This document shows, piece after piece, positions 5,069-59,900 of a stretch of 60,000 nucleotides of DNA. A program made the position numbers and the translations under genes. The notes beneath the pieces are model-generated. The model did no database searches. It was not told where the DNA came from and was given only the letters and a program-made list of their open reading frames with translations. The first letter of the stretch is position 1. Each line of letters opens with the position of its first letter. The stretch lies in assembly GCA_019038625.1 (NCBI GenBank), contig JAHOYU010000084.1, forward strand, positions 1 through 60,000, written 5' to 3'. The stretch is from Candidatus Latescibacterota bacterium. GTDB lineage: Bacteria; Krumholzibacteriota; Krumholzibacteriia; Krumholzibacteriales; Krumholzibacteriaceae.

Positions 5069-6448
5069 CTACCGCATAAGGATCATCTTTTTATACTGGG
5101 TCTCGCCACCGACAGTCAACTTGTAGAAGTAGACGCCGCTGACAACATCCGAGCCGTTGAAGTCCTTACCATTCCAGGAAGCGACTCCTGGGCCCGCTTT
5201 CTCGCCCTGGTCCTTCAGAGTGACGATCCTCTGTCCGGCGATGTTGTAGATATCGAGTTTCACATGACAATCCCTTACAAGATTGTACTCGATCGTCGTG
5301 TTCGGATTGAACGGGTTCGGATAGTTCTGGGACAGAGTGAAAGCCACAGGGGACTCCTCTTTGCCGGACGCAAGGAACGGTCCGTGCATCGAATTTTCTC
5401 CGTCCACACTTATGCCTTCGATCCAGTAGAAGCAATCGAGTCTCTGCTCGAGGCCAGCATCGACGACTGAGTAATCCGCGCCATTGACATCAGATCCCCT
5501 GGCAGGGATAAGGGCGCTGTTTACCATCAGTCTTTCGCTGTCGACACTGATCGTGCGATAGACGTTGAAGCCGGCCATACTGCCTTCGGATTCTGTGGTC
5601 CAGTTTATGGTCCGGGAACCATTGCCGTTGTACAATACCTCGAAAGTTCCCATCTGAGTGGCCGTACTCGGCTCATGATCGTAGTGCATTATCCAGGCTT
5701 CGCCAAGAAGTGAATCCGCAGGCTCAATCCCGCTCCAGAACTCCCAATGACCGTACACGTGAGGAGGATATACCCATCTCTCGGTCGTAAGGAGTAATCC
5801 AAAATTACCGCTTGGTAATATGGCGAAATCGCCACCTGTGTAAAGGCCTGCGTCCCAGCCATCCCATGTGAACATATTATCTTCCAGGTCAAAATGAAGA
5901 AGGCCGAACTCGAGGCCCCTGACGTAAAGATCGTTGACAAGATCATTGTTGATGAGTTCGAACGGATAGACGTCCAACTCGCCGCCCGGCGTGAAGTAAC
6001 GTCGCAAGAATCTCCATTTGTGTGGCGGGAATTTAGCTGGTCCAACATAGCCACCATTATAAGTCCAATATGCCTCTTCAAGCTCCTGCTGATTGGTGCA
6101 TACTGTCCCCTTCAGCGTTATATTGATCCTGACTTTGACCATGGTACAATATGGCAGAGTCGTTGCCCAGTCCATGTCTACATCAAATCCCTGGCCGTCA
6201 CCGTGCATGGTATACCCAATGGCACTCGCGGGTGGGTCGGCTCCGACCCAGTTGACCGAGAGGAGTTCCGAGTCACTGTCGATCCTTATACTCAGGTGAA
6301 GATCATTCACCAGATCCGGAAGACCGTATGACTGGTGGAACTCGTAAGCACAGGTAACAGAGCCGGTTCCTGCGTGGGCCGCTACCGGTACCAGAGCAAC
6401 AAAAAGCAGCAGGGCGCACGCGGTAAACACAATGGATCTGTTTCTCAT
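5069..6448 (-). CDS. secreted hypothetical protein with T9SS C-terminal sorting domain
   Basis: 459 aa. The signal peptide is MRNRSIVFTACALLLFVALVPVAAHA. The C-terminus QNYPNPFNPNTTIEYNL...LDIYNIAGQRIVTL...GVYFYKLTVGGETQYKKMILMR is the classic T9SS type-A CTD. An AGGAGG RBS lies upstream. The N-terminal body is not recognised. Confidence 0.85.
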   Translation of the reverse strand: MRNRSIVFTACALLLFVALVPVAAHAGTGSVTCAYEFHQSYGLPDLVNDLHLSIRIDSDSELLSVNWVGADPPASAIGYTMHGDGQGFDVDMDWATTLPYCTMVKVRINITLKGTVCTNQQELEEAYWTYNGGYVGPAKFPPHKWRFLRRYFTPGGELDVYPFELINNDLVNDLYVRGLEFGLLHFDLEDNMFTWDGWDAGLYTGGDFAILPSGNFGLLLTTERWVYPPHVYGHWEFWSGIEPADSLLGEAWIMHYDHEPSTATQMGTFEVLYNGNGSRTINWTTESEGSMAGFNVYRTISVDSERLMVNSALIPARGSDVNGADYSVVDAGLEQRLDCFYWIEGISVDGENSMHGPFLASGKEESPVAFTLSQNYPNPFNPNTTIEYNLVRDCHVKLDIYNIAGQRIVTLKDQGEKAGPGVASWNGKDFNGSDVVSGVYFYKLTVGGETQYKKMILMR

Positions 6449-12076: not shown

Positions 12077-12813
12077 CTTGAACGGGTCACGCCTGTCTTA
12101 CGGCAGAGACCCTCAATGGGACATTTGGAACAATGTGGAGACGTCGGAGTACAGATCGCCTTGCCGTACATCACCAGCAGGTCGTTGATCTCGATCCAGT
12201 GCTTCCGGGGCAACACTTTCCTTAACGCAAACTCTGTCTCGGTCGGATTTTTCGTTCTGATGACGCCCAGCCGGTTGGTCACTTTGTGTACATGTGTATC
12301 GACACAGATACCCGGTATCCCGAATCCAAGGGTAAGTACCAGGTTCGCTGTCTTTCTTCCCACACCGGGAAGACACACCAGCTCATCGATCGTATCGGGC
12401 ACTTCCCCACCGAATTCATCCTCCAGCATTTTGCAGAGACCCGTGATCGATCTGGCCTTTACCTTGTAGAATCCCGCGGGATAGATCGCCTTTTCTATTC
12501 GGGCAGGCCCCAGACTCGCCATCTCACCGGGAGTACCAGCCAGATCGAACAGTCTGGCGCTGGCCAGACCAGTCACCTCGTCCTTCGTCCTTGCGCTGAT
12601 CACCGTGGAGACCAGCACCCGGAATGGTGAGCGTGTATTTCGGGCGATTATTGTGACTGAAGGATCATCCTCCCCCTCCATAGCTTTTTTAACGGGGGGA
12701 ACGATCTTCTTAAGGACAGATGTAGCCTCTTTCTCTCCAAAAGGGAACCATTCTTCTTTGATCTTCAAGTCGCTCATGAGATTCTCTTTCTTCTCCATGT
12801 GTTGCAGAGACAC
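12073..12813 (-). CDS. nth: endonuclease III (DNA glycosylase/AP lyase)
   Basis: 246 aa. The HhH-GPD core is LPGVGRKTANLVL...CVDTHVHKVTNRLG, and the C-terminal 4Fe-4S loop is C-x6-C-x2-C-x5-C (ICTPTSPHCSKCPIEGLC). It overlaps the M64 gene start by 4 nt. Confidence 0.9.
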   Translation of the reverse strand: MSLQHMEKKENLMSDLKIKEEWFPFGEKEATSVLKKIVPPVKKAMEGEDDPSVTIIARNTRSPFRVLVSTVISARTKDEVTGLASARLFDLAGTPGEMASLGPARIEKAIYPAGFYKVKARSITGLCKMLEDEFGGEVPDTIDELVCLPGVGRKTANLVLTLGFGIPGICVDTHVHKVTNRLGVIRTKNPTETEFALRKVLPRKHWIEINDLLVMYGKAICTPTSPHCSKCPIEGLCRKTGVTRSR

Positions 12814-34816: not shown

Positions 34817-34847
34817 AAACAAAAAGACGAAAGGAGAATACCTTTCG
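34817..34847 (-). terminator. rho-independent terminator of the MCP-like/CheA-like/HD-GYP operon
   Basis: The 7-bp stem CGAAAGG / CCTTTCG (34828-34847) has a 6-nt loop. On the minus strand it is followed by TCTTTTTGTTT. It lies 36 nt past the stop at 34883. Confidence 0.55.
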
Positions 34848-34882
34848 CCGCATGTATAAAGAGATGACAATGTAAACAGAAT

Positions 34883-36421
34883 TTACTGCTTTATCACGCC
34901 TTTTTCGACCAGCTTGACCAGGTTCTTGACGATTTTGAGATCGAATTTCTCTCCCTGCCCCAGAAGGGCACTTAGGGCTTCCCTGTACTCAAGAGCTTTC
35001 CGGTACGGCCTGTTGCTGGTCATGGCGTCAAAACTGTCGGCAACAGCGACTATCCTGGCGCCGGTCGATATCTCGTCACCCTTCAACCCATCAGGATACC
35101 CATTCCCGTCCAGACGTTCATGGTGGTGCCTGACCAGGTCGCATGCCGTTTCGAGAAACTTCATGTTCTTGATGATATTTGCCCCCACCTCGGGATGGCT
35201 CCTGACGACCTCCCACTCATTGTCAGTCAATTCTCCGGGCTTGTTCAAAATCGTCTCGTATACTCCCAGCTTTCCTATGTCGTGCAAGGCAGCTCCGAAA
35301 CTGACGGTATCGCGCTGTTCCCTGTCCATCCCCATCTCCTCGGCGATCAGGCGAGCATACCTTGCCACTCTTTCTGTGTGACCTTTCGTGTAGCTGTCTT
35401 TTGCTTCGATAGTCGATACCAGGACCTTGATCGTGGAGAGATAGGTGTCCTGTAGTTCGGAATACAACCTCGAGTTCTCGAGTCCTGTCGCAGCAGACGA
35501 ACAGATCGACCTGAGCATGGCGAGGTCTTCCAGGTTGTAGGGGAGCTTGTTGATCTTCTCCCCGAGAAAGATGATTCCTGTAAGACAGGAATTCACTATC
35601 AGAGGATAACAGCAGGCAAATCCAAGATCCCGTAGAAAAATCGACTCCCTGGCCGCATCCTCCGGCAATTCGCCATCCTTAAGGTTCACGACATCCTGCT
35701 TGCTGAGCAGATGCTTGGAGAGTCCGTCTTTTCTCGTCAGCCGGATGGTCTGCAGGACGTTGTTCCTGAGGCCCTTCCCACCCACATAGGAGAGGTAGGG
35801 ATCCGTGTTTTTCTCGGCGTAAAAAAGAGCCACAGAATCTATGGCAAGCTGGCCGATCACTGTCAGGAAAAAGACATGAGTCAACTCCTCCGGATCACGA
35901 AGCCTGTTGAGGTCTTTGCTCAAGCTGAACAGGGTCTCAAAATCCAGGACCTTCTTCTTCAATTCCCTGTTGATCCGCTTATAATCCTTCTGTCCTTTTT
36001 CCAGCTCGTCCTCAAGGATCTCGTTTTGCTCTCTGAGGTTTTTTCGCCCATTGGCCTGCATGAGAAAGTTGTCTATCTTAGCCAGGACTTCCTTGACTGA
36101 AAATGGCTTCTTTATATAATCCTGCGCTCCGGAGTTGAATCCATGAAGCATTGTGTCGGGTATGGAATTACCTGAGATCAGAATGACTGGCACATCGTTG
36201 TTCACGTCTTTTGAGCGTATCTCGTTACAGACCTCGAACCCGTCTTTGCGAGGCAGTCCCACATCCAGGACTACAAGATCAGGCTGGTATTTCTCGTACA
36301 CTTCCAGCGCCGTGACCCCATCATAGGCTGATTCAGTGTTGTATCCGTTGTTACGGAGAGACTCTGTAATGATCTCTACAACGTTAGGATCGTCATCGAC
36401 TACGAGTACGTTTTTAATCAC
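34883..36421 (-). CDS. response regulator: REC - GAF-like - HD-GYP (c-di-GMP phosphodiesterase type)
   Basis: 512 aa. The receiver is canonical (VVDDDP, VVLDVGLP, ILISG, IKKPF). A central GAF-like region follows. The HD-GYP motifs are intact: HTERVARY, LHDIGKLGV, HHERLDGNGYPDGL, VADSFDAMTSNRPYR. Confidence 0.9.
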   Translation of the reverse strand: MIKNVLVVDDDPNVVEIITESLRNNGYNTESAYDGVTALEVYEKYQPDLVVLDVGLPRKDGFEVCNEIRSKDVNNDVPVILISGNSIPDTMLHGFNSGAQDYIKKPFSVKEVLAKIDNFLMQANGRKNLREQNEILEDELEKGQKDYKRINRELKKKVLDFETLFSLSKDLNRLRDPEELTHVFFLTVIGQLAIDSVALFYAEKNTDPYLSYVGGKGLRNNVLQTIRLTRKDGLSKHLLSKQDVVNLKDGELPEDAARESIFLRDLGFACCYPLIVNSCLTGIIFLGEKINKLPYNLEDLAMLRSICSSAATGLENSRLYSELQDTYLSTIKVLVSTIEAKDSYTKGHTERVARYARLIAEEMGMDREQRDTVSFGAALHDIGKLGVYETILNKPGELTDNEWEVVRSHPEVGANIIKNMKFLETACDLVRHHHERLDGNGYPDGLKGDEISTGARIVAVADSFDAMTSNRPYRKALEYREALSALLGQGEKFDLKIVKNLVKLVEKGVIKQ

Positions 36422-36434
36422 ATCACACCAGCCT

Positions 36435-38333
36435 TCAGGAAACCGTTACTCCGGGCCTTACGGATCTGGCCATCTCTTTTTCTATAATCCTGGCAAACTG
36501 TCTCACGACTTCCCGATCATACCTGAGTCCATAGTTTTCCCTGAGCGTGTCCAGGGCTTCCTTCGAAGACAACGCGGGCCGGTTCGGCCTTTCGTTGATC
36601 ATTGCTGAATAGCTTTCCACGACAGAAATGATTCTCGAACCTAAAGGTATCTCCTTGCCTCTGAGTCCGCGTGGATATCCTTCTCCGTTAAACCTTTCGT
36701 GGTGGCTCAGAACGATATTTACTACGTGATCCTCGAATTTCATGCGCCTCAGCATCTCCGCACCGTCTTCAGGATGTTTGTTGATGATATTCCATTCTTC
36801 TCTCGTGAGTTCTCTCGGGCTTCTCACGATCAGATCACTGACCTTGATCATCCCCATATCTCTTAGCACGGTACCATACACAAGATCCTTAAAGTGTTCT
36901 TCTGGATAATCCATATTCTTCGCTACCATGCCTACATACCTCGAAACAAACTCCGATGTCCCTGTAAGCATCGTGTTTTCCTCGATCAGCGAGATAAGAG
37001 TCTTCACGATTCCAAGGGTCCGTTCGTGTTCGCGTTCGAGCATCAATGCGTTCTGGTATGCGCCTGTCGCGACGTTTATAAGGATCTTCATGAACTCGAA
37101 GTCCTCTTTTTTCATCCCTCTGCCCGAGATCCTTCTTCCCAGGAAGATCAGTCCGGCTATTCCCTCGTTGATCCTGAAGGGACAGAAGTATTCTATACTC
37201 GCATCTTTTAACATATCGATCGTTACTTCGTCGAATGACCCGGTATCCAGACCAATCACATCATGGATGCCTGCGATCTTTCTCTCCATGTCTGGAGGCA
37301 TTGAAAATGGTTGTAGCTGGTTTTCGTTGACACCCTTCATCAACATGGGGACATAGGAACTTTCGACCTTCTCAAAGAATACAGCCGACTCCACTCCCCC
37401 CTGGGCGATCGAAGTAAGCAGAAAAATGTCGAGAAGATTCTTCTTGTCACGGATCGCGTTGAAATCGGCGCTGATCGAGAGGAGTGTCTTGAGCTCCAAC
37501 AGGCGCCGCTTCAACTTGATATTGATATCAACGTTATCGTTTTTCTTATCAACTTCCGATGATTCGTCTTTTTTCGCCCCGGTCTCCCCGGGTGTCTCAT
37601 CGACCTTATCCTTCTGTTTACCACTGAATATCTCCGAAATTATACCGTTGTTCCCGGCTCGGACCTTCTGTTCTGCTGTTTCCTCAACCGATACGACCTC
37701 TTCAGCGGAAATACTTTTCTCTTCGTGGACCGCAGCCTTCTCTTCCACTTTTTCCTCGACATCCTCACTATGGTCCACCTTTTTGTCATCATCCTCAAAC
37801 TGACCGTCATACGACATCAGAATCACACCGGGAGCAATCTCTGGATTGTCTTCGGCCCGGTCCTTTTCCTCGACAGAAAGGGTCTCGAGAACTTCCTCAG
37901 TCTTCTCCAGAAGATCATCCTCATCATTTTCGTCGACAATCGGTGCGACTGGAATATCGTCATCATCAGCATCTTCCGATGGAACGACATTCAACGGCGT
38001 CCCTACTGCCTCCTCATATGATTGATAGACTTCAACATCGGTATCATCATCCCTGAGGAAATCAAGTACGATATCGTTGGTTATAACGAATCTTACCGGT
38101 CTTCCCTGCTCATTCTGGGAAACGACGAAGGCCCGCAGGATCTTCGCCACTCCCCCACCCAGGGAAGACAATTCCGTAAAATCAAAGATTACCTGCCCGA
38201 ATTCTCTCCGGACACATTCCTTGACAAGATGCTCGATCTTTTCATTTTCATGAAACCCCAGTTTGCCGCTGATGCGGAATGCCGCGATGTCAGCGCTGCC
38301 GGTTTCAATTCTCTCGAATCTGGTCTTTGACAT
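36435..38333 (-). CDS. STAS - acidic linker - GAF-like - degenerate HD-GYP protein
   Basis: 632 aa. The N-terminal STAS/SpoIIAA-like fold reads FRISGKLGFHE...VIFDFTELSSLGGGVAKIL. An Asp/Glu-rich linker of about 170 aa follows. The GAF-like and HD-GYP regions are paralogous to the downstream gene, but the metal ligands are replaced (TSEFVSRY, LRDMGMIKV, HHERFNGEGYP, VVESYSAM). Confidence 0.85.
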   Translation of the reverse strand: MSKTRFERIETGSADIAAFRISGKLGFHENEKIEHLVKECVRREFGQVIFDFTELSSLGGGVAKILRAFVVSQNEQGRPVRFVITNDIVLDFLRDDDTDVEVYQSYEEAVGTPLNVVPSEDADDDDIPVAPIVDENDEDDLLEKTEEVLETLSVEEKDRAEDNPEIAPGVILMSYDGQFEDDDKKVDHSEDVEEKVEEKAAVHEEKSISAEEVVSVEETAEQKVRAGNNGIISEIFSGKQKDKVDETPGETGAKKDESSEVDKKNDNVDINIKLKRRLLELKTLLSISADFNAIRDKKNLLDIFLLTSIAQGGVESAVFFEKVESSYVPMLMKGVNENQLQPFSMPPDMERKIAGIHDVIGLDTGSFDEVTIDMLKDASIEYFCPFRINEGIAGLIFLGRRISGRGMKKEDFEFMKILINVATGAYQNALMLEREHERTLGIVKTLISLIEENTMLTGTSEFVSRYVGMVAKNMDYPEEHFKDLVYGTVLRDMGMIKVSDLIVRSPRELTREEWNIINKHPEDGAEMLRRMKFEDHVVNIVLSHHERFNGEGYPRGLRGKEIPLGSRIISVVESYSAMINERPNRPALSSKEALDTLRENYGLRYDREVVRQFARIIEKEMARSVRPGVTVS

Positions 38334-38358
38334 CTACCTGCTCCTGACGAGCCCGTTC

Positions 38359-38598
38359 TTATTCCGCGCCAGTGAATACTTCTTCCTGAGATAGCCATCT
38401 GTCGAGGACACTCCTCAGGAACCTCCATTCACTACCGACTTTTTTGGCCGGGATCTTCTTTTCTTTGGCTAGACGGCAGACCGTCTTTACATGCATTTTC
38501 AGATAATCCGCGGCTTCTACAGAAGTCATTACTTCGTTGGCGTCGTCATGCCCACCGATGATGATGTTACCGTAATCGCGCTGTTGCTGTTTCTCCAT
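38359..38598 (-). CDS. excisionase/MerR-type HTH_17 DNA-binding protein
   Basis: 79 aa. MTSVEAADYLKMHVKTVCRLAKEKKIPAKKVGSEWRF..SVLDRWL is the typical 'helix-turn-helix, excisionase family' pattern. Confidence 0.8.
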   Translation of the reverse strand: MEKQQQRDYGNIIIGGHDDANEVMTSVEAADYLKMHVKTVCRLAKEKKIPAKKVGSEWRFLRSVLDRWLSQEEVFTGAE

Positions 38599-38660
38599 GA
38601 CAACCTCTCTGTCCTTTGATCACTGCCCCAGGGAAACTCGACCCGGGACCTTTCGCTTAA

Positions 38661-40331
38661 TTACACACGCGAAATCCTGTCTCCGACAGTACCCTTTACC
38701 TCTTCCTCCTCTATCGAAAAACCCGACTCTTCCAAGGATCCGCCATATCCCATTACTGAAGAGTATTTATCAAGAACGAGTCCCGTCTCGAGCACGGGAT
38801 ACTCGGTTTCTCCGATATTCAGAATCGCCCTCGTTATCGAGGCCCATTCTCCTCCGGTAAGTTGATCGATGATTCCTTCGACCTTTTTCCCGGATGAATC
38901 GAAAAATATGCCAAGCCGCTTCTCTGCGAGCCCCATAATTGCTATATGCATGTCATTGTTTGAGATATCGACTTCTTCGGGAGCGATTTCTCCCAGCGCG
39001 CAGACCGGGATATTCTCGCCTTCGAACCGGATATGCCGCATACTGCCCGATTCCTTTATCTCTATACTACTTGCTTCCAGTATCGTTTCCACTGCCCTTG
39101 AAGGGATTGCGACACTGACTCCCGACGCAGTAAAGAGATGATAATCGGTCATCACCGAACTGCGAGGGAATGTGAACTTAAACCTTCCCTCGGAGCCACC
39201 ACCAGGCTCGACCCATAGCAGGCAACTCCACTTCTTGAGCAATCCTCGGGCCTTGAGAAGTCCCTTGTAAAACGCCACGGCATCGTCCCTGTCTATCTCC
39301 GAATCTGACAGAAACGCCTTCGCGTTATCCTTCAGAGTCGCTACAAGAAATGATCCTTTATTCTCGATCTCAAGATCTATATTCAGACTTTCTCCACCAT
39401 TTTCCTGCATTCTGCAGATATCGAACAACAGGTGTTCGAGAATGCCGGCCAGGTCGGAGGCTGCCTCCCTTTCCAATGGAAAACTGTCCGTCCTCATCGA
39501 CGTACGCACATCCCATCCATGCATACGGCTGTTCATGGCTATGAAATCCTCGACGCCATCCAGAACGGTCCTGCTCGAGACCTTTGCTTTAAACATTCTT
39601 CCCAGATCCCCTATCCGGGCAAGGATATTACCAACAAGCCCGAGGTAGAACTCGCACTCACCGAAAGAAAGCTCCAGGTCTCTCAGAAGAGCTGAATTCT
39701 CTTCGGGATCCGCGAGATAATCGAGATACCTCTCCCTTACCCTGAAAAGAGAATTCTGAAGCCTGTCAATAGTACCAAAACTGCCTGTCGAATCGCTGTC
39801 TTCTTCGTTGCTTGCTGTGGGTACCCTTTCAATCATGGAGGGTTTATCATCCGGGACGACAGGCTCCAGTGATACGGAGCCTATCTCTTCGAACTCAGCC
39901 TCCTGCTGAGAGGATTCGGGATATGACTCTTCCAGCAACACCTTCATCTCCTGCCGGAGACCGGAAAGATTCTGTCTTATAGCTTCATCATCGAGCTCTC
40001 CGGAAATGACATCCATGGCGATCTGTTCTTCACTCTCAAGTATCTCCGAGACGATCTGTGATATATTCTCATCCCAGCATCCCGTCGAACCCTCGACCCT
40101 TACGAGCAATTCACCAAACATGCCCAGCGTTTCACTCCAGTCCTCCAGCCCGAGCATCCTCGTACTTCCCTCAAGGAGCCTGTTCGCGAAACATGTTTTT
40201 CTATAAGCTGCTTCCTGGAACGTCTCGCCCGCTGAATGGCTCATGAGCTCATTAAGCTTCGATACATGATCGTTGATCTGTTCACCGAAAAGCGCTGTAT
40301 TTTCTTCACCAAGTCTAATCAAAACCTTCAC
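38661..40331 (-). CDS. CheA-like pseudokinase scaffold (HPt-like, degenerate HATPase-like, CheW-like domains)
   Basis: 556 aa. ANRLLEGSTRMLGLEDW aligns by eye with the CheA P1 motif A(A)HTLKGSAGMFGL, with His replaced by Arg. SDLAGILEHLLFDICRM aligns with the N-box region DPLTHLIRNSVDHG, and the Asn and His are lost. No DxGxG / GxGxG ATP-lid boxes are seen. The C-terminal region VSVAIPSRAVETILE...RFEGENIPVCALGEI...IAIMG resembles a CheW/P5 domain. Confidence 0.65.
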   Translation of the reverse strand: MKVLIRLGEENTALFGEQINDHVSKLNELMSHSAGETFQEAAYRKTCFANRLLEGSTRMLGLEDWSETLGMFGELLVRVEGSTGCWDENISQIVSEILESEEQIAMDVISGELDDEAIRQNLSGLRQEMKVLLEESYPESSQQEAEFEEIGSVSLEPVVPDDKPSMIERVPTASNEEDSDSTGSFGTIDRLQNSLFRVRERYLDYLADPEENSALLRDLELSFGECEFYLGLVGNILARIGDLGRMFKAKVSSRTVLDGVEDFIAMNSRMHGWDVRTSMRTDSFPLEREAASDLAGILEHLLFDICRMQENGGESLNIDLEIENKGSFLVATLKDNAKAFLSDSEIDRDDAVAFYKGLLKARGLLKKWSCLLWVEPGGGSEGRFKFTFPRSSVMTDYHLFTASGVSVAIPSRAVETILEASSIEIKESGSMRHIRFEGENIPVCALGEIAPEEVDISNNDMHIAIMGLAEKRLGIFFDSSGKKVEGIIDQLTGGEWASITRAILNIGETEYPVLETGLVLDKYSSVMGYGGSLEESGFSIEEEEVKGTVGDRISRV

Positions 40332-40336
40332 CCCTG

Positions 40337-42280
40337 TTACTGAGACGGTGTCTGTTCAACGTATTCTATGGCTCCCAGCTCGAACAGATCGTAGACCGGT
40401 TCGTTATTATCGTTTTCTGATGCTGGCGTCTCTTCGTCTTTCTGAGTCGCCTGGTCGCGATTCATGTCTGCCGCGCCACGGATCGTCTCCGCCATACGCT
40501 CCATCATGTCTTCCGGTGAATCATCATTCGCAGATTGCCCGGCAACTTCAGTATCCGGCTGCTCTTCGGCAACGGTTTCCTGCGAGTCTTCCCGTGCGAG
40601 TTCAACTGCAGGAGGCACCTCATGTGAATCACTTTCTTCATCCATACCTATCTTGACCCAGCGATGTCCGGGCATTTCCATCATGTCATCGCCAGGCTGA
40701 GGACCATCGGCCTGTTCAGCGGATACCTCGTGTTCTTTCACTTCCGGCACCTTTTCAGGCTCTACATTTTCAGCGTCCTCAATAGTGATCTTCTTGCTGT
40801 CTGTATCTTCTTCGTGACTCTCTGTTCCTTCATTGACAGGTTCATCGAATATGGCCTGATGAACATCATCAGATCCGGCTGATGTAAAGCTTTCAGCTTC
40901 CCAGATGTTGCTCCTGTCGAGGACCAGTTCGTCACTTTCATCCTGATTTTCTGCACTTTCTTCGACTCCGTTATCGAATGACACGAACTCACCTGACGAT
41001 TTGGAGCTTTCATTCGTTTCCACCACAAAATCGTCTTCGAGGTCATCATCGATACGGTCATCCGCCAGGGTCTTATGGATCTCTTCATTAAAAGTATCTA
41101 TCTCGTTTCCGAGAGAGGTGACCTTCGCCTGCAGAGAATGACTTTTCTCTTCTATTAATTTCGATATCTCTGAAAGAGATTCCGTGATCCCTGATGTATC
41201 AGGGGAAGAGGCGGCAGAAGAAACTGCACCAGACGACAGAGTCTGGAGTCCCGAATCGATCTTGCGGGAAGTATCAGAGATCTGTACGCCCAACTTGTTG
41301 AAGCGCTCCGCTGTCGACCTGACTTTTTCGGCGAACCGGGCAAGATCCTGTTCGGAGATATCACCCCTGGCCGCCATCAACGCGATATTCAGTGCCAGCC
41401 CGTTGTTCTCTTCGGAAAACTCGTTCATCGCCCTGCTGCCGCTATCAAGGTTAGCGAGCGCATCTCTGATGTCCGCGACTGCCTGGGTCTTCCCTCCATC
41501 CGGCGCCTGTACTGCCTGCGTAGCCGGTTCGGCGCTTTCAAGCTCTTTTACCGTACTGTTCAGGCTTCCGACAGCTCTGGCGATCTCGATAATATCTTCA
41601 TTGGATCCACCGAGTGACTCCATCCACTTTCCGAATGACAGCGCTGCTCTCGCGATGACCTGACGTCCAGCATCAGACTTGCCATCCTTATTGCTTTTGG
41701 AACCCGCAACGTGGTCCGCAACTTTCCTGATAATTGATCCCCACCACTTTCCTTCTATAAGGGGTTCATTTATCCCGTTTCCGCTGAGTACCGAATCAAG
41801 CTCTATCTCGAGGTCCACCGATCGCGATTCCTCCACCCTGCTGCTGAGCTCTTCGGAGATCTCTTTGATCTGATCCCCATAGTTGCGAAGTATGCCCTGA
41901 AGTTCAGGATAGTCCGACAACTTGGCTATCTGGGCCGGATTCGTGAGGTCGTCTATGCTGTCGGCCAAGGATATCATCTTTCTGTAATCCTGCCCCGAGG
42001 ACAGGTAGAACTTGTAGCGCCTGACTGCCGAAGCTATTGTAAAATATGCGACCAGAGCTATGAGAATAACTCCAGCCACCATCGGATACATCTCTTTGAA
42101 GAATCCGAAAGAATCGATCACCCACTTTGAATCGGTCGTATTCAACCAGGTCAGATTGATGTCGTATACATTTACGAGGTAGTATCCGACCCCGAAGCTG
42201 GTCACAACCAACATCAGAGCTACAAACATCCCAATTTTCCAGGGTGATGTCAGAACTGGTCTCTTCTCTGATTTTCGCAA
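40337..42280 (-). CDS. MCP-like 2-TM protein with diverged signalling hairpin and long polyacidic tail
   Basis: The track ORF extends to TTG 42373. The TTG at 42280 is preceded by AAGGAG with a 7-nt spacer. There are two TM helices with a ~25-aa outside loop, then coiled-coil sequence with NNGLALNIALMAARGD...FAEKVRSTAERF (canonical MCP: NLLALNAAIEAARAGE.GRGFAVVADEVRKLAERS). The last ~230 aa are D/E-rich low complexity. Confidence 0.65.
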   Translation of the reverse strand: MRKSEKRPVLTSPWKIGMFVALMLVVTSFGVGYYLVNVYDINLTWLNTTDSKWVIDSFGFFKEMYPMVAGVILIALVAYFTIASAVRRYKFYLSSGQDYRKMISLADSIDDLTNPAQIAKLSDYPELQGILRNYGDQIKEISEELSSRVEESRSVDLEIELDSVLSGNGINEPLIEGKWWGSIIRKVADHVAGSKSNKDGKSDAGRQVIARAALSFGKWMESLGGSNEDIIEIARAVGSLNSTVKELESAEPATQAVQAPDGGKTQAVADIRDALANLDSGSRAMNEFSEENNGLALNIALMAARGDISEQDLARFAEKVRSTAERFNKLGVQISDTSRKIDSGLQTLSSGAVSSAASSPDTSGITESLSEISKLIEEKSHSLQAKVTSLGNEIDTFNEEIHKTLADDRIDDDLEDDFVVETNESSKSSGEFVSFDNGVEESAENQDESDELVLDRSNIWEAESFTSAGSDDVHQAIFDEPVNEGTESHEEDTDSKKITIEDAENVEPEKVPEVKEHEVSAEQADGPQPGDDMMEMPGHRWVKIGMDEESDSHEVPPAVELAREDSQETVAEEQPDTEVAGQSANDDSPEDMMERMAETIRGAADMNRDQATQKDEETPASENDNNEPVYDLFELGAIEYVEQTPSQ

Positions 42281-42608
42281 TTTGGTCTCCTTTACGGCAG
42301 AAATAGGCCTGCCGGCCAGGTTAAATATATATTTTATTACTCGACTGCTATGTGCCGTGGGGGGAGAGCGCAAAGATTATGCCAAGGAAGAATCTAATAC
42401 AACTGGCAGTATTGATAAGGTGTTATAGGGAATTTCAAAGCACAGGACGTAAACAGGAGGACTAATATGCCAGCATTAAATGCGTTTTGCAAACCAGGCG
42501 GAAGGGAACAAAAAATATCTTTTTTTTATGATTCACGCCATTCCTGCAGTCCGCCGACCTGAGTCGGACAAACCCCATCTGCTGACATGATCATCTCGGA
42601 CTATGCCT

Positions 42609-43603: not shown

Positions 43604-44398
43604 ATGTCCACAGAAACGACCTACAGGGTGATCGATACGAGCACCGGGAACCCACACCCGGCCACACCTGTAACAGACGATTCTACAGGCTTTTTCATGA
43701 TGAACAACCTGCTATACAGCAGGATCGACTGCAAGCATCCCACAAATGACGAATACTTCGACGAAGACGTCAATGTCTATCTGGCCAACCTTCTCGATTC
43801 GCTCATCAACCCATCGCAACATGACGCGATGCGCCGCCTGGTGGTGCCCTACGATATTTCTTTATTCGAGTCTGTCCGCAAACAGAAAGATCCGCGGATA
43901 AAATACATGACATACAGAATGAATGCCGATTTCCTCCTGATATACTCCGGAGTGTTCAGCAATCCCAGGAACAGACGCCCCGATTCGGCTTCACAGTTCG
44001 AATTGAGCGACAACACGTACCTGGGAAGGGGAAAAGCATATTACAGCATCGCTCAGTCCTACTGTTCCCAGACATTCCACAAAAATACGGCGATCGGGGA
44101 GATCATGGGAAAACTCTCCAGGGGATTTGAGAAGTATGTAGAGGTATTGTCGACGATGAGAAGTGAATATCTACACATCATCGATCCTATCTCACAGGGA
44201 GAAATGTATCACCTGGAACGCTCTGTAAACCATGAGGAACTAAAGGCTTCACTTGCCTGCTTGTACGACGATTTTCTTGATGCCTATACCAGACACGGGC
44301 AGGAAAAGACCGGATCCACGCGGGAAATCCTCGAAAAATGCGCGTCGAGGATCAAGGAAGTGGACCCTGGCTTCAGCTTTTCCATAAACGACGACTAG
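43604..44398 (+). CDS. hypothetical protein (no family recognised)
   Basis: 264-aa ORF with ordinary composition, downstream of the sigma54 promoter. Its stop overlaps the convergent hydrolase stop by 4 nt. Confidence 0.7.
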   Translation: MSTETTYRVIDTSTGNPHPATPVTDDSTGFFMMNNLLYSRIDCKHPTNDEYFDEDVNVYLANLLDSLINPSQHDAMRRLVVPYDISLFESVRKQKDPRIKYMTYRMNADFLLIYSGVFSNPRNRRPDSASQFELSDNTYLGRGKAYYSIAQSYCSQTFHKNTAIGEIMGKLSRGFEKYVEVLSTMRSEYLHIIDPISQGEMYHLERSVNHEELKASLACLYDDFLDAYTRHGQEKTGSTREILEKCASRIKEVDPGFSFSINDD

Positions 44399-55986: not shown

Positions 55987-58900
55987 TCAGCGGATCAATG
56001 CCGCGTCGGATACTATGACACTCGCCACTCCGAGTTCGCTTTCCACCTTCCCCCTGATATGGAACGGCCCCCTGCCCTTCACCAGTTCTTTTGCTGTCTT
56101 CCTGTAAGTCTCGGGAAAGAAGATACCTTCGAACCTTCCTTCCCGGTCGGAGAACGTGATAAATAACATCTCTTCGCCTTTGCCCGAGGTGCGGGTGGCC
56201 TTACCGGTCACCTTCCAGCCGACCGTGTCGATCTCGCGTCCGGTCATCGAGGGTATCTGCAGCGATGTCACCAGATCGCGGCGGGTGGCGAGGGCACGGA
56301 GAGGCTCGGTATACATATCCAGTGGATGGGCGCTGATACACATGTCGAGGATCTCTCTCTCCGCCGAAAGCGACTCCTGCAGGCCATAGTCCTCCAGGGG
56401 GGGGATCGCCGCCATGAGATTCCCGGGGGCCGGCGCGCGGCTGGTGAGTGCTGGCTCCCGCCCAGCGCTGATCGCTGCGCTGAGTATCTGAAGTTCCCAC
56501 ATCAGTTCGGGGCGTGTACGCCCGAAACAGGTCATGGCCCCGCACCGTATCAGCGACTCGACCTCACGGCTCGAGATCTCCATCCTGGACAGAAAATCAT
56601 CGAGGGAAGCGAACGGTCGATGCTCGATGATCGCGTCGGCCGCGGCAGTCGTCAGCCCCTTCACCTGACAGAACCCCACGCGCAGCTTGCGCCCGCTGCC
56701 CGAATGCCTGATCCCGCTCTCGTTCACGCATGGGGGAAGCACGGTCAGCCCGATCCGTTTTGCCTCTTCCAGGTATTCCTCGAAGGAGTAATATCCCCCG
56801 CCGTTGGAAAGGACGGCTGCCATGAACTCGGCAGGGTAATGTGCCTTCCACCACGCACTCTCGAACGACTCGACGGCGAAGGAGGCCGAATGAGCCTTGC
56901 AGAAGGCGTAGCCGGCGAAGGCCGCTATCCGGTCGAAGACATCAGTGGCGACGCTGTCCGGGATACCCTTCCGGGCAGCCCCACTCATGAACGCCTCCCG
57001 GTACCCTTCGAAAGTCTCTCCATCAGTGTTCTTGAATGACATGCATCGCCGCAGCCCATCCGCCTCGGCGTAGCTCATCCCCGCCACGGCGACTGCGAGC
57101 CTGATCACCTGCTCCTGGTAGATCAGGCAACCGAATGTATCGCAGAGTACCGCCTCAACGGCGGGATGATGTTTTTCGACCTCTTCGAGGCCGAGCGACC
57201 TTCGCAGGTACGACTGCTTCCCCCCGTGGCTCGACACGCCGGGCCTTATGATCGACGAAAGCGCTGTGAGCACCTCGAAATCTTCGCACTTCGCCTGGCG
57301 CATCAGCTGCATCATTATCGGTGACTCGATATAGAAACACCCTTCAGTCTTTCCTTCGCGAAGAAGCGCCTTCGTCGCCGGATCGTTGAAATAATCAATC
57401 CTCTCCGGATGCAGGACCTTCTCACCTTTACTCGAAGCCATTGCGGCTGCTTCCTGTATCACGGCAAGTCCCTTCTGACCGAGTATGTCTATCTTCACCA
57501 GCCCCGCGTCCTCGACCTCGTACATCGACCACTGTGTTATCTCGTATCCCTTGTCGCCGCGCTGGAGCGGCATCACGTCTGTGATCGGTTCCGGTGATAT
57601 GACGAGCCCGCAGGGGTGGGTGCCCATATGCCTGGGAAATCCCCCTATCCTGATCGCTATCGGCAGCAGTGTCTTCAGCGGCTCCTGTTCCAGCGGCAGA
57701 TCGGCCGCGCGCGGCGAGACCTTCCTCAGGTCCTCAAGCCGGTCTATCGAAGAGTAGAACGGGATCATCTTGATCAGTGGGGCCACTTCCCCCTCGGGGA
57801 TGCCGAGCGCCTTTGCCGTCTCGCGTATCGCCGACCTCGCCCGCAGGGTGCAGTAGGTCCCTATCATCGCGACATGGTCCTCCCCGTACCGGCGGAAGAT
57901 ATACTGCAGGACCTCCTCACGGTCGTCCGTGGCAAAATCTATGTCAAAATCTGGAAGCTGCTCGCGCTCGGGGTTGAGAAAGCGCTCGAAGAACATGTTG
58001 TGGCGAAGAGGATTCACATGAGTGATGCCCAGGGCGTAGGATACGAGGCTGTTCCCCGCCGACCCCCTGCCGAGCGACCTCATCCCGCGCAACGAGGCAA
58101 ACCTCACTATGTCCCAGCAGATGAGAAAGTAGTCGGCCAGTCCCTTCCCCTCTATCACGGAGAGTTCGTACTCCAGCATTCCGAGAGCTTCGGTCATCTC
58201 GCGCTCACTGACGCTCCCGAGCCGTTTTCGAAGCCCTCTCTGCGTCGTGCGGCGCAGCACCTCCGCCGCCGACTCGCCTGGGGGAAGCATAAATCGTGGA
58301 AGGCGCCTCTTTCCGATTCCCGGGTCGACATGACAATCGGAGGCGATGCGGGCGGTCTCAAGTACCGGCCCCGCATCCGGCCCGAAGACCTTCTCGATCT
58401 CCCTGCCAGTACGGAAGTACGCCCCTCGAGGCTCAGCTTCGTTCGGCAGTAAAGTCCCCACTGTCTTGCGCAGCCTGATGGCGGTGAGCACACGGTGGGC
58501 TAGATGATCCCGCGGCCTGGCGAATGCGACCGGGCCTGCGGCGACCGTCATGATTTTGCGTCTGGCGGCAAGGTCACTGAGCCTCCACCTAATCCTGTCA
58601 TACTCCCTTCCCTCTATCACCGGCAGTTTGGCGCGAAGGTGCTCGCGACCCGCAAGGCGTTCGAGCATGTGTGGATCTGAAGAGAGTACATAGACATCGT
58701 CCGAGACCGACTTGAGCGCCTCGCCGAACGAAAAATCCTCATCGAGCTTTCTCGACGTGACCATCCTGCATAGCTCGCTGTACCCCGAGCCGTTCCTCGC
58801 CAGAAGCACAGCACTCGCCTCGAAGCCTCCATCCTCCACGCTGACGCTGTCGGTCAGCTCCACTCCGAAGATCGGCCTGACTCCCGCTTCCGAACAGGCT

Positions 58901-59061
58901 GCAGCGAAAGGTACGATGGTACACATATTGTCGATATCGGTGAGGGCGATCGCGTCCATCCCCGCTGCCGCAGCCATTGCGGGAAGCTCCTCGACCCCGC
59001 ATACGCCCGAAAGCATCGAAAAACAGGAACGGGCGTTCAGATGTATGAATGCCCCGCTCAA
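55987..59061 (-). CDS. dnaE2: error-prone DNA polymerase III alpha-like subunit DnaE2 (ImuC)
   Basis: 1024 aa. It has an N-terminal PHP domain (HLNARSCFSMLSG...ALTDIDN), a PolIIIA core (GRGSAGNSLVSYALGIT, DFDIDF) and a C-terminal OB-fold. The length and the 4-nt overlap with an upstream Y-family polymerase-like gene match imuB-dnaE2 mutasome cassettes. Confidence 0.88.
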   Translation of the reverse strand: MSGAFIHLNARSCFSMLSGVCGVEELPAMAAAAGMDAIALTDIDNMCTIVPFAAACSEAGVRPIFGVELTDSVSVEDGGFEASAVLLARNGSGYSELCRMVTSRKLDEDFSFGEALKSVSDDVYVLSSDPHMLERLAGREHLRAKLPVIEGREYDRIRWRLSDLAARRKIMTVAAGPVAFARPRDHLAHRVLTAIRLRKTVGTLLPNEAEPRGAYFRTGREIEKVFGPDAGPVLETARIASDCHVDPGIGKRRLPRFMLPPGESAAEVLRRTTQRGLRKRLGSVSEREMTEALGMLEYELSVIEGKGLADYFLICWDIVRFASLRGMRSLGRGSAGNSLVSYALGITHVNPLRHNMFFERFLNPEREQLPDFDIDFATDDREEVLQYIFRRYGEDHVAMIGTYCTLRARSAIRETAKALGIPEGEVAPLIKMIPFYSSIDRLEDLRKVSPRAADLPLEQEPLKTLLPIAIRIGGFPRHMGTHPCGLVISPEPITDVMPLQRGDKGYEITQWSMYEVEDAGLVKIDILGQKGLAVIQEAAAMASSKGEKVLHPERIDYFNDPATKALLREGKTEGCFYIESPIMMQLMRQAKCEDFEVLTALSSIIRPGVSSHGGKQSYLRRSLGLEEVEKHHPAVEAVLCDTFGCLIYQEQVIRLAVAVAGMSYAEADGLRRCMSFKNTDGETFEGYREAFMSGAARKGIPDSVATDVFDRIAAFAGYAFCKAHSASFAVESFESAWWKAHYPAEFMAAVLSNGGGYYSFEEYLEEAKRIGLTVLPPCVNESGIRHSGSGRKLRVGFCQVKGLTTAAADAIIEHRPFASLDDFLSRMEISSREVESLIRCGAMTCFGRTRPELMWELQILSAAISAGREPALTSRAPAPGNLMAAIPPLEDYGLQESLSAEREILDMCISAHPLDMYTEPLRALATRRDLVTSLQIPSMTGREIDTVGWKVTGKATRTSGKGEEMLFITFSDREGRFEGIFFPETYRKTAKELVKGRGPFHIRGKVESELGVASVIVSDAALIR

Positions 59062-59900
59062 GGCTGCCCACTCCCCGACCTCACAGCCGCCACAGACCTC
59101 CCGAAGACGGGAGCGACGCCCCGGGGCAGCTCCGTTCTCAAACGATCCAGGGCGTCGTGGATCCTGCGCCTGCGCAGTTCCTTTTTTTTGCTCTCTGCCA
59201 AAAAGAGTTCGAGCTGGAGAGGCTCGGGCTCAAGCGAACTTCCCTGCATCGATATGCTCCGCACCCTCACCCTGCGTGTGAATACACGGTCAAATACTTC
59301 TCCCGCACAATCGAAGAGCTTCAGATCGTCGGAACTACCCTGCGGAAGCCTGCCTGTACCAGAACTGATGTTCCCATCGGCGTAGGTCAGTTCCACCCGC
59401 AACCTGCCCGCGATTCGCCGGTCAGCGCGGAGCGACTGCCCCAGCTCTTCGGACATATCGTAGAGAAAAGATTCGAGAAGTCCCCGGTCGTCGAGGTCAG
59501 GCTGGAGGAGCCGGGTCACCTTCGCCCTTTCGTCATCGCGGGCCGATGTCCTGACCGGACTGGAGTCCTCACCGAGCGCCCCGCGGTAGAGGCGCTTTCC
59601 CCACGGACCGAGGCAGTATGTAAAAAGCTCCTCGCGAAACAGAAGAATGTCCCCCACTCTCCTGATCCCCAGTCCGGCGAGCATCGGGGCGTACTTCTCT
59701 CCTGCGGGCGGGAAATGCCCTATCTCGACCGGAGCGAGGAACGAGCTTTCGCATCCGGGATAGACATCGACCATGTGGGCACGCTTGGCGCTTCGCGAGG
59801 CCACATGGCTGACCAGCCTGCTTGCGGCCACGCCGAGGGAGATGTCGAGTCCTGTATCACTGAACACCTCGCCCTTGATGCGCCTGCCCGTGTCGAGCAC
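59058..59900 (-). CDS. Y-family DNA polymerase-like protein (ImuB/DinB-like). The longest uninterrupted reading frame is shown; homology continues upstream across an in-frame TGA, so this is a probable pseudogene or an error.
   Basis: The track ORF starts at GTG 59900. The same frame upstream reads ...ILDILHGFSPVVVAE*LDEGYIDYTGCRRVFGH-VLDTGRRIK..., which matches the DinB motif ...EPLSLDEAYLDVT... with TGA (59954..59952) at the conserved Ser position. Little-finger and HhH-like regions follow (GLGIRRVGDIL). Confidence 0.65.
   Translation of the reverse strand: MLDTGRRIKGEVFSDTGLDISLGVAASRLVSHVASRSAKRAHMVDVYPGCESSFLAPVEIGHFPPAGEKYAPMLAGLGIRRVGDILLFREELFTYCLGPWGKRLYRGALGEDSSPVRTSARDDERAKVTRLLQPDLDDRGLLESFLYDMSEELGQSLRADRRIAGRLRVELTYADGNISSGTGRLPQGSSDDLKLFDCAGEVFDRVFTRRVRVRSISMQGSSLEPEPLQLELFLAESKKKELRRRRIHDALDRLRTELPRGVAPVFGRSVAAVRSGSGQP

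Follow-up and report, generated by a model that had tools for sequence, protein, structure and literature searches.

Gene layout of the module

We analyzed a 60,000-nt stretch of DNA (hereafter the window) that corresponds to positions 1–60,000 of contig JAHOYU010000084.1 from the Candidatus Latescibacterota bacterium assembly GCA_019038625.1. The window contains a module of five genes, g1–g5, that combines chemosensory-like proteins with HD-GYP proteins. A previous sequence-only reading described the module as five co-directional minus-strand genes with tight gaps, closed by a hairpin and a T-tract. The proteins were assigned, in order, as a receptor related to methyl-accepting chemotaxis proteins (MCPs), a CheA-like protein with HPt-, HATPase-, and CheW-like regions and substituted phospho-His and ATP boxes, an HTH_17 protein, a STAS-GAF-HD-GYP protein with degenerated metal ligands, and a REC-GAF-HD-GYP protein with intact motifs. 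Our open reading frame (ORF) check of the window reproduced the coordinates, the shared strand, the gaps, and the terminator-like hairpin, and each of the five protein assignments is borne out by the searches described below.

The first gene, g1, encodes the MCP-like receptor and occupies positions 40337–42373 (−). Its longest ORF is 678 aa, and its start is probably at 42280, giving the 647 aa of the database gene call P0113. The gene g2 (38661–40331, −) encodes the CheA-derived pseudokinase in an ORF of 556 aa, with a probable start at 40322 that gives the 553 aa of gene call P0001, which the residue numbering of g2 follows. The gene g3 (38359–38598, −) encodes a 79-aa HTH_17 (excisionase/MerR-like) protein. 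It is followed by g4 (36435–38333, −), encoding a 632-aa STAS-GAF-HD-GYP protein with a non-canonical HD-GYP domain, and g5 (34883–36421, −), encoding a 512-aa REC-GAF-HD-GYP protein with intact motifs.

The spacing from g1 to g5 is 5 (or 14), 62, 25, and 13 nt. An intrinsic-terminator-like hairpin with a T-tract (34817–34849, −) closes the module 34 nt past the g5 stop codon. It is composed of a 9-bp stem (34849–34826) containing five GC pairs, followed by the tail TTTTTGTTTG. This is the sole terminator-like site outside the coding sequence, and none was found in the four intergenic gaps. The GC content around the region is approximately 0.48–0.55, and that of the module is the same as in its flanks. 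From this layout we infer that g1–g5 are co-transcribed.

Domain structure of the CheA homolog g2

Searched as single sequences (Pfam, NCBIfam, and phmmer against the PDB), g1 and g2 gave no informative matches, and family profiles and structure prediction were needed. The protein database contains 112 relatives of g2, nearly all of which are full length, and the named ones belong to Candidatus Krumholzibacteriota. A profile of 55 g2 sequences matched P4–P5 of Thermotoga maritima CheA in the PDB (E = 3.3e-11), and in a hhalign comparison of the family profile with E. coli CheA alone, only the end of P4 and P5 aligned. PF01584 is matched by 50 of the 55 relatives and HATPase_c, weakly, by eight; the g2 protein of the window alone scores 20.2 bits against CheW, below the cut-off of 23.5.

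The AlphaFold2 model of g2 has a pLDDT of 82. The best Foldseek matches of the model are P3-P4-P5 of CheA (6s1k_A with 1.7e-14, 8c5v_A, and 1b3q_A), with E-values up to 1e-12. The matches extend over about 400 columns and include CheA of the E. coli and Thermotoga core signaling units. The C-terminal domain of g2 resembles CheW structures with template-modeling (TM) scores of 0.67–0.78. According to the model, the g2 protein is composed of a P1-like five-helix bundle with Arg at the phospho-His position (residues 6–133), an acidic disordered linker without a P2 domain (138–180), a P3-like helical hairpin (183–237), a P4-like GHKL domain without the G1 glycines, F box, and G2 box (about 247–386), and a P5/CheW-like domain (391–523).

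The N-terminal 136 residues of g2, modeled alone, form five helices with a pLDDT of 88. The eight best matches in a fold search with this model are CheA P1 domains, with TM scores of 0.56–0.74. Superposition onto 1i5n gives a TM score of 0.69–0.74 and a root-mean-square deviation of 3.1 Å. As helical bundles commonly do, the domain reaches only modest E-values (0.013). The fold matches include the P1 domain of Rhodobacter sphaeroides CheA3 bound to CheY6 (3kyi). Judged by these models, g2 is a CheA homolog that keeps the folds of P1, P3, P4, and P5, including the P3 dimerization hairpin and the P5 receptor-coupling domain.

The top sequence match of the P1-like profile in the PDB was the GAP domain of Pseudomonas ExoS (E = 0.003), which was rejected since CheA P1 tops the fold search. 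The ExoS match covers g2 residues 27–105 (window 39927–40322, −), with the shared pattern GRLLE.S...W. It is probably due to chance or to a general similarity of helical bundles.

Loss of kinase motifs in g2

The P1-like domain of g2 was aligned to E. coli CheA P1 without gaps (MAFFT). The column of the phospho-acceptor H48 contains Arg in the g2 protein of the window. Among 55 relatives of lineage A (the lineages are described below), the column holds Arg in 44, Lys in nine, Ser in one, and Gly in one, and His in none. In lineage B, His is found in one of 25 proteins and Arg or Lys in 17 of 25. At the position of CheA K51 the g2 relatives have mostly Glu, and at that of E70 mostly Arg. The residue G52 is invariant, and the adjoining G53 position is an invariant Ser. 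The invariant or conserved residues of helices A and B are Q15, D18, H19, K22, L49, L50, G52, and S53. Of these, H19 is positioned on helix A (window approximately 40266–40268, −), on one face with Q15, D18, and K22. It is invariant in lineage A (55/55) and retained in 23 of the 25 proteins from lineage B, the other two having Gln.

In the P4-like domain, the G1 box DDGAG is changed to KDNAK in the g2 protein of the window. The family consensus is x-D-N-x-x, which retains an invariant Asp but has lost the glycines. Two deletions, 13 and 19 residues long (about 32 together), take out the F and G2 boxes, the latter being GRGVG, and a conserved acidic segment, DSEIDRDDAxAFYxGL, replaces the deleted region. 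The N-box Asn is conserved in neither plausible register of the MAFFT alignment of P3–P5 with E. coli CheA, in which the register is ambiguous. Thus, g2 has neither a phosphorylatable His, despite its P1 fold, nor the N, G1, F, and G2 boxes, despite its GHKL fold, and the absence of the His, the G1 glycines, and the F and G2 boxes is itself conserved. The G2 glycines and the ATP lid of GHKL kinases are needed for binding the phosphates of ATP. Because these elements are deleted from g2, its autophosphorylation in the manner of CheA is very unlikely. The P4-like domain could nevertheless bind another ligand.

The chemoreceptor-like membrane protein g1

The g1 protein is formed by two transmembrane helices connected by a loop of about 27 residues, a cytoplasmic coiled-coil hairpin, and an acidic disordered tail. 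A periplasmic sensor domain is lacking. The juxtamembrane cytoplasmic segment is nearly invariant and follows the pattern SGQDYRKMISLA.SIDDLTNPAQIA.LS.YPELQ..LRNYGDQI.EIS. The tip of the hairpin has the sequence EENNGLALNIALMAARG. Within the tip, the N-arm retains the conserved pattern E.NN.LALN.A..AAR, and the C-arm carries EQDLARFA in place of GRGFAVVA. The disordered tail contains a conserved C-terminal peptide, VYDLFELGAIEYVE, the core of which, DL(F/Y)xLGA(V/I)(E/D), is kept in lineages A and B (window approximately 40337–40400, −). The sequence WMEMPGHRWVK is present in g1 of lineage A only.

There are 155 relatives of g1 in the protein database. The g1 family profile matches the signaling domains of TM1143, Tsr, and Aer in the PDB with E-values from 1.5e-7 to 6e-6, in alignments that cross the tip. 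In a hhalign comparison with E. coli Tar (E = 3.8e-5), only the tip was aligned. PF00015 is matched by 33 of 45 g1 relatives (E ≤ 0.1), and the match of the g1 protein of the window alone to MCPsignal is not significant (E = 0.24). On the evidence of the hairpin and tip recognized at the family level, g1 is a diverged MCP homolog. The cheR and cheB genes, required for adaptation of MCPs by methylation, were found neither in the window nor in the flanks of related loci. Canonical MCPs carry the pentapeptide NWETF, a tethered docking motif. The conserved peptides in the disordered regions of g1 and g4 look like tethered docking motifs comparable to NWETF.

The HD-GYP proteins g4 and g5

The g5 protein matches the Pfam families REC (E = 3.5e-28) and HD_5 (E = 1e-39). 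Its single-sequence GAF call is weak (GAF_3, E = 0.014). When the middle regions of g4 and g5 orthologs were combined into a profile, the best match was the GAF domain of PmGH (E = 2e-8), ahead of classical GAF domains, and a GAF domain was accepted in both proteins. The g5 orthologs keep the HD-GYP motifs GHTERV, HDIGK, HHHERLDGxGYP, and ADSFDAMTSxRPYR. Without exception, the 58 g5 orthologs examined carry the equivalents of CheY D12, D13, D57, T87 (as Ser), and K109. By these motifs, the REC domain of g5 has the acidic pocket and phospho-Asp of receivers (PF00072), its HD-GYP domain (PF13487) has the metal ligands and GYP motif, and g5 is presumed to be a catalytic cyclic-dinucleotide phosphodiesterase. 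In the PDB, g5 matches the cyclic di-GMP (c-di-GMP) phosphodiesterase PmGH (1.2e-44) and the 3'3'-cyclic GMP-AMP (cGAMP) phosphodiesterase V-cGAP3 of Vibrio (6e-44).

The g4 protein matches HD_5 (E = 4e-34) and STAS (23.6 bits, just over the cut-off of 22.6) and consists, in order, of a STAS domain, an acidic disordered linker, a GAF domain, and an HD-GYP domain. The linker contains the conserved islands VILMSYD and IISEIF (window approximately 37700–37950, −). The STAS domain is conserved in lineages A and B, and its conserved Ser, in the motif SLGGG, occupies the usual STAS phosphorylation position. Compared with g5, the HD-GYP motifs of g4 are changed from GHTERV to GTSEFV, from HDIGK to RDMGM, from HHERLDGxGYP to HHERFNGEGYP, and from ADSFDAM to VESYSAM. 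The signature of the g4 orthologs is G(T/S)SE(F/I/L)V, RD(M/I)GM, HHERFNGEGYP, and VESY(S/A)AM, in which the first His is replaced by Thr or Ser, HD by RD, GK by GM, DG by NG, and AD..D by VE..S/A. The same substitutions are found in each ortholog in which the motif was located: 35 from lineage A, 28 from lineage B, and nine from lineage C. The closest solved relative of g4 is V-cGAP3 (5z7c, 3.3e-24). By its motifs, g4 lacks the catalytic ligands of HD-GYP enzymes. Because the degenerate pattern is itself conserved, it points to a new function of g4 and not to decay, and we regard the signature as a fixed alternative state of the domain.

The HTH protein g3

The g3 protein matches PF12728 with E = 1.8e-13 (50.9 bits, cut-off 27) and TIGR01764 with 46.6 bits (cut-off 28.8), and is a predicted HTH_17/excisionase-type DNA-binding protein. 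Its N-terminal extension is conserved (DYG.IIIGGHDD). The g3 gene is present at every informative locus and is the most conserved of the module, with 80–86% protein identity in lineage A relatives whose g2 proteins are 32–45% identical.

Conservation of the module in Krumholzibacteriota

Seven contigs with g2 relatives of 32–45% identity carry all of g1–g5 in the same order, with gaps of 10–27, 56–99, 21–38, and −1 to 15 nt. Species-representative genomes, when scanned, yielded 43 lineage A loci, and hidden Markov models of the five genes show the full gene order at each locus that extends far enough. An exhaustive profile search revealed a second tier of proteins, approximately 650–760 aa long, in which the same pseudo-CheA is extended by a C-terminal receiver-like domain (lineages B and C). 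Aligned together, the sister-family proteins proved too diverse to be used for scanning loci, and the alignment was split. Lineage B comprises 40 loci from about 38 species, and the more distant lineage C comprises nine species, all with the same module. That the module recurs as a syntenic unit in relatives, a point that the sequence-only reading proposed to check, is therefore upheld in about 90 species (43 + ~38 + 9), with the order kept at all informative loci and gaps of approximately 10–100 nt.

Within lineage A, protein identity is 61–70% for g5, 52–60% for g4, and 36–45% for g1. Over the approximately 90 species it falls to about 20–30%, yet the set never breaks up. The named records are labeled Krumholzibacteriia or Krumholzibacteriota, UBP1, or 'Latescibacter-' (older labels). 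Three single bins, named 'Patescibacteria', 'Chitinivibrionia', and 'Deltaproteobacteria', probably carry the wrong label. The module is vertically inherited and has a fixed chromosomal position.

The receiver-like domain fused to the pseudo-CheA of lineage B has Glu at the position of D57 in 23 of 25 proteins and at that of D12 in 24 of 25, and so departs from the acidic phospho-acceptor pocket of receivers. As a gene fusion present in lineages B and C, it constitutes a Rosetta-stone-type link between the CheA-like scaffold and receiver domains. The g2–g3 gap is generally wider in lineage B, up to about 250 nt. At one lineage B locus (L009, 12122–12340, +), an extra 72-aa ORF without a Pfam match is located between the pseudo-CheA-REC and HTH_17 genes.

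At three lineage C loci (L094, L099, and L101), g5 is absent beside the module, and the degenerate g4 is kept. The next gene at a g5-less lineage C locus (L010, 15051–16343, −) is on the opposite strand and encodes a PucR-like regulator with RsbRD_N, GGDEF_2, and HTH_30 domains. The lineage B locus L061 (CP070631.1), an apparent exception without g4 and g5, was not counted: its g4 is broken by a masked N-run (12426–12525), after which the sequence is unrelated.

Genomic neighborhood

The neighborhood of the module (window approximately 28000–50300, loci L001–L008) is syntenic across the phylum. Genes for PHP, IMPDH, Fer4, abhydrolase, a hypothetical protein, and CN_hydrolase are located upstream. 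The convergent and likewise syntenic series CdaA-FolP-FtsH-Hpt-TilS is located downstream, so that the c-di-AMP cyclase gene cdaA always adjoins the module. Between the abhydrolase and CN_hydrolase genes, a 264-aa ORF without a Pfam match (window 43604–44398, +) occupies the same position, on the opposite strand, in all examined loci.

Searches of the window with Pfam (other ORFs of at least 150 aa) and phmmer (all ORFs of at least 50 aa) found no further chemotaxis, kinase, or GGDEF genes. The phmmer queries were E. coli CheA, CheW, CheY, CheZ, CheB, CheR, Tar, Tap, and MotB, and those of CheY and CheB matched the REC domain of g5 alone. The statement of the earlier reading that the window holds no cheR, cheB, cheY, stand-alone cheW, or GGDEF gene agrees with these scans. 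Pfam detected no PP2C/SpoIIE domain in the window, and neither a kinase gene nor cheW, cheR, or cheB was found in the flanks of related loci. Of the minimal set of a canonical or alternative cellular function (ACF) pathway, consisting of MCP, active CheA, CheW, CheY/REC, CheR, and CheB, only MCP-like, CheA-like, and REC-output proteins are encoded here.

Farther from the module, the window encodes a 1304-aa gingipain-like Peptidase_C25 protein with a propeptide and CARDB and FlgD_ig domains (1064–4978, +). The adjoining gene (5069–6448, −) encodes a protein with a Por_Secre_tail sorting domain, and the domains of the pair suggest type IX secretion cargo in the organism. At the other end of the window (55987–59900, −), a gene for a DnaE2-like polymerase III alpha subunit (1024 aa) is positioned directly downstream of an IMS_C (ImuB-like) gene, and the two have the look of an error-prone polymerase cassette. 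This stretch is the sole part of the window with a GC content of about 0.60, compared with 0.46–0.56 elsewhere.

Proposed signaling mechanism

We are confident of the anatomy of the module and of the pseudokinase status of g2, and consider it highly probable that the five genes are functionally coupled. Our preferred reading, to which we give an even chance, is that the region is a vertically inherited Krumholzibacteriota signaling operon built of chemosensory parts that no longer uses a CheA kinase. The specific mechanism of signaling by contact, outlined below, is held with similarly balanced confidence.

We hypothesize that the hairpin tip of g1 and the P5 domain of g2 assemble a membrane-bound scaffold of receptor and pseudo-CheA. 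A membrane or cytoplasmic cue would act on the invariant juxtamembrane module of g1, and the resulting conformational change would be passed through P3 and the P4-like domain to the P1-like domain. The helix A/B face of the P1-like domain corresponds to the surface by which histidine phosphotransfer (HPt) domains dock receivers. Its candidate partner would be the REC domain of g5, or, in lineages B and C, the receiver-like domain fused in cis. Regulated docking of the P1-like domain on g5 REC would switch the hydrolysis of a cyclic dinucleotide by g5. The P4-like domain or the tethered peptides could possibly dock onto g4, which, as a degenerate HD-GYP protein, may sense the nucleotide or serve as an adaptor without being catalytic. 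Transcriptional output would come from the HTH_17 protein g3, much as MerR-like regulators are controlled by trigger phosphodiesterases.

Several observations weigh against the preferred reading. The invariant phospho-acceptor pocket of g5 is the signature of a phosphorylated receiver, and a kinase elsewhere probably feeds the system. The Arg or Lys at the former His site, conserved in lineage A, is less so in lineage B. The g5 gene is not strictly required, given the three lineage C loci without an adjacent copy. The substrate is left undecided between c-di-GMP and cGAMP by the sequence, because g5 is about equally close to PmGH and V-cGAP3, and no diguanylate cyclase was seen. Finally, because the surrounding 20 kb or so of housekeeping genes are equally syntenic, the gene order says less about coupling than it usually would. 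Independent support for coupling comes from the tight spacing within the module and from the REC fusion.

The sequence-only reading is supported as a whole, and the same observations qualify its mechanistic claims. Of the findings that it named as refuting, a lack of MCP, CheA, or CheW homology, intact phospho-His and ATP boxes, and a lack of synteny were each looked for, and none applies. Its proposal of signaling by protein contact fits the loss of kinase chemistry in g2, and the stronger version, purely by contact, is not established, given the invariant g5 receiver. Partner switching through STAS, its second suggestion, has a STAS domain in g4 in its favor. The defining partners of such a set, a cognate Ser-kinase and a PP2C phosphatase, are absent from the window, and the nearby GHKL fold, the P4-like domain of g2, has no ATP lid. 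The designation of a c-di-GMP module is right as to the HD-GYP family of the output, and c-di-GMP itself is an inferred substrate.

Alternative explanations

The intact pocket of g5 can be read in two ways: either an unlinked kinase or small-molecule donor provides an input by phosphorylation, or the pocket persists as a docking site for the basic residue in place of the phospho-His. Because the pocket is intact, phosphorylation of g5 REC by an unlinked donor is likely as a second input. Taken further, this leads to the most serious alternative, which we regard as possible and clearly less probable than the preferred reading. The module would be an accessory branch of a conventional phosphorelay, in which a canonical CheA or an orphan histidine kinase encoded elsewhere phosphorylates g5 REC, or H19 of g2 in trans, and the pseudo-CheA merely localizes, gates, or dephosphorylates the phosphate flow. 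R. sphaeroides CheA4 reportedly phosphorylates CheA3 in trans, and it is the complex of CheA3 P1 with CheY6 that the P1-like fold matches. The invariance of the g5 phospho-acceptor residues argues for such a relay, as does H19, which is positioned on the helix beside the former phospho-site and is invariant in lineage A. On the other hand, H19 is replaced by Gln in two lineage B proteins, and we know of no HPt domain with a phospho-His on helix A. The Glu at the phospho-Asp position of the fused lineage B receiver argues that phosphotransfer within the scaffold has been abandoned. As to the source of phosphate, flagellar and chemotaxis genes have been reported in some Krumholzibacteriota metagenome-assembled genomes (PMC10936416), whereas no kinase gene is present in the window or at the approximately 90 related loci.

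The second way of reading the pocket gives a more daring version of the contact mechanism, in which a chemoreceptor array signals without phosphoryl transfer from CheA. The Arg or Lys of the P1-like domain would enter the acidic pocket of g5 REC as a pseudo-phosphoryl group, and the docking of the two domains would switch hydrolysis. The g4 protein would sense the nucleotide and hold or release the HTH_17 protein, and the C-terminal peptides of the receptor would recruit partners. We consider this combination of steps doubtful. If true, it would represent a new logic of MCP/CheA signaling, and an entire phylum would have the module as its signature sensory system.

It is improbable that g1–g2, as a relic or stand-alone scaffold, and g3–g5, as a separate cyclic-dinucleotide regulon, are independent neighbors held together by regional synteny. 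Such an arrangement would be in keeping with the surrounding genes, from IMPDH to CN_hydrolase and CdaA-FolP-FtsH-TilS, which are syntenic across the phylum. It would also agree with the position of the largest gap, which is between g2 and g3 and in lineage B may include an extra ORF. However, all five genes are on one strand with a spacing of 5–100 nt, and the gaps between them contain nothing resembling a terminator. In two lineages the CheA-like protein is extended by a receiver-like domain, and the set is intact over about 90 species despite the fall in identity.

A decaying remnant of a chemotaxis operon, or a mobile anti-phage defense island, is a highly improbable origin of the module: the catalytic motifs of g2 and g4 are lost, and g1 weakly resembles ZorA, and g3 MADS1, in NCBIfam and PADLOC, but the reading frames are intact with dozens of invariant residues over about 90 species, and the site is fixed among housekeeping genes with the GC content of the flanks. 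Decay into pseudogenes was ruled out, effectively refuted by the conservation of the substitutions themselves, and anti-phage defense was rejected because the PADLOC matches are to generic HTH, HD, and REC domains only and because inheritance is vertical and the position fixed.

Comparison with known systems

Literature searches on kinase-dead CheA, on pairing of CheA with HD-GYP proteins, and on degenerate HD-GYP proteins with chemoreceptors found nothing relevant, and neither a CheA lacking both the His and the ATP lid nor this operon was found, although the coverage was incomplete. The view of the sequence-only reading that no system of this architecture has been described accords with these searches, as far as the absence of evidence allows. 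To our knowledge, CheA is the defining enzyme of chemosensory pathways, and every described class, including Wsp and the control of pili, needs its autophosphorylation. The module suggests that chemosensory parts have been re-used without the kinase, coupled to a pair of catalytic and degenerate HD-GYP proteins and an HTH protein, and conserved across a candidate phylum. A kinase-dead full-length CheA homolog that remains with an MCP under strong purifying selection in about 90 species implies that the scaffold of receptor and CheA is useful as a conformational or scaffolding device. The module offers a natural system for asking what arrays transmit besides kinase control, and a conserved-degenerate HD-GYP protein for functional study. 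For the uncultured phylum Krumholzibacteriota, it also serves as a lineage marker and gives a first hypothesis about a sensory system. The module proteins are rich in soluble domains, and their heterologous expression should be tractable.

The scaffold of g2 has parallels among kinases that signal without their own catalysis. DivL and RetS are histidine-kinase pseudokinases that signal by contact, and R. sphaeroides CheA3 and CheA4 are split or atypical CheAs. Like g2, these proteins retain the scaffold of a kinase family after catalysis was lost or divided. In contrast to g2, none of them is a full P1-P3-P4-P5 CheA that has lost both the His and the ATP lid, and none has an MCP and HD-GYP proteins as partners.

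The g5 protein is an ordinary member of the REC/GAF-HD-GYP family. It shares the REC-HD-GYP logic of Xanthomonas RpfG and the GAF-HD-GYP core of PmGH (4mcw), with all metal-ligand and GYP motifs. Unlike in the RpfC/RpfG pair, the adjacent partner of g5 is a kinase-dead CheA homolog with an MCP and not a histidine kinase. The g4 protein resembles degenerate HD-GYP domains, such as the N-terminal domain of V-cGAP3 (5z7c) and Bd1817 (3tm8), in which the fold and the GYP motif are kept and key metal ligands are lost; PA2572 of Pseudomonas aeruginosa is also said to be a degenerate HD-GYP domain. The g4 protein differs from these in its phylum-wide RD[MI]GM/NGEGYP/VESYxAM set, its N-terminal STAS domain, and its neighbors, a catalytic paralog and a pseudo-CheA.

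The HptB-HsbR-HsbA-HsbD pathway reportedly links STAS partner switching to a c-di-GMP enzyme. Such switching is tied to a c-di-GMP enzyme in SiaABCD, and STAS genes occur in some chemosensory clusters (PMC9239204). The module is similar to SiaABCD and Hsb in the association of STAS with a c-di-GMP enzyme and chemosensory genes. It differs from them in that no ATP-binding GHKL Ser-kinase and no PP2C phosphatase are present and the STAS domain is fused to a degenerate HD-GYP domain instead of being free-standing. In E. coli, PdeR, DgcM, and MlrA exemplify the control of a MerR-like regulator by trigger enzymes. As in that system, a pair of c-di-GMP enzymes could control a small MerR-type HTH protein by contact, which would explain the embedded and conserved g3. 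The enzymes there are EAL and GGDEF proteins, in contrast to the HD-GYP proteins here, and they have no chemosensory scaffold.

The closest overall comparison is the Wsp system of Pseudomonas, of the ACF class, composed of the MCP WspA, the CheA-REC protein WspE, and the REC-GGDEF protein WspR. Both systems place an MCP and a CheA-family protein upstream of a REC-bearing c-di-GMP enzyme, both have a non-flagellar output, and the CheA-REC fusion of Wsp is paralleled in lineages B and C. In Wsp, the kinase WspE is active and has the His and the N, G1, F, and G2 boxes, whereas g2 has neither the His nor the ATP-lid boxes. Wsp includes CheW (WspB/D), CheR (WspC), and CheB (WspF), none of which is present at the module. 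The Wsp output is synthesis by a GGDEF domain, and that of the module is a member of the HD-GYP hydrolase family with a degenerate paralog and an HTH protein. An active CheA, CheW, CheR, and CheB are all missing from the module, which would work most like an ACF/Wsp-type pathway that feeds a REC-coupled c-di-GMP enzyme.

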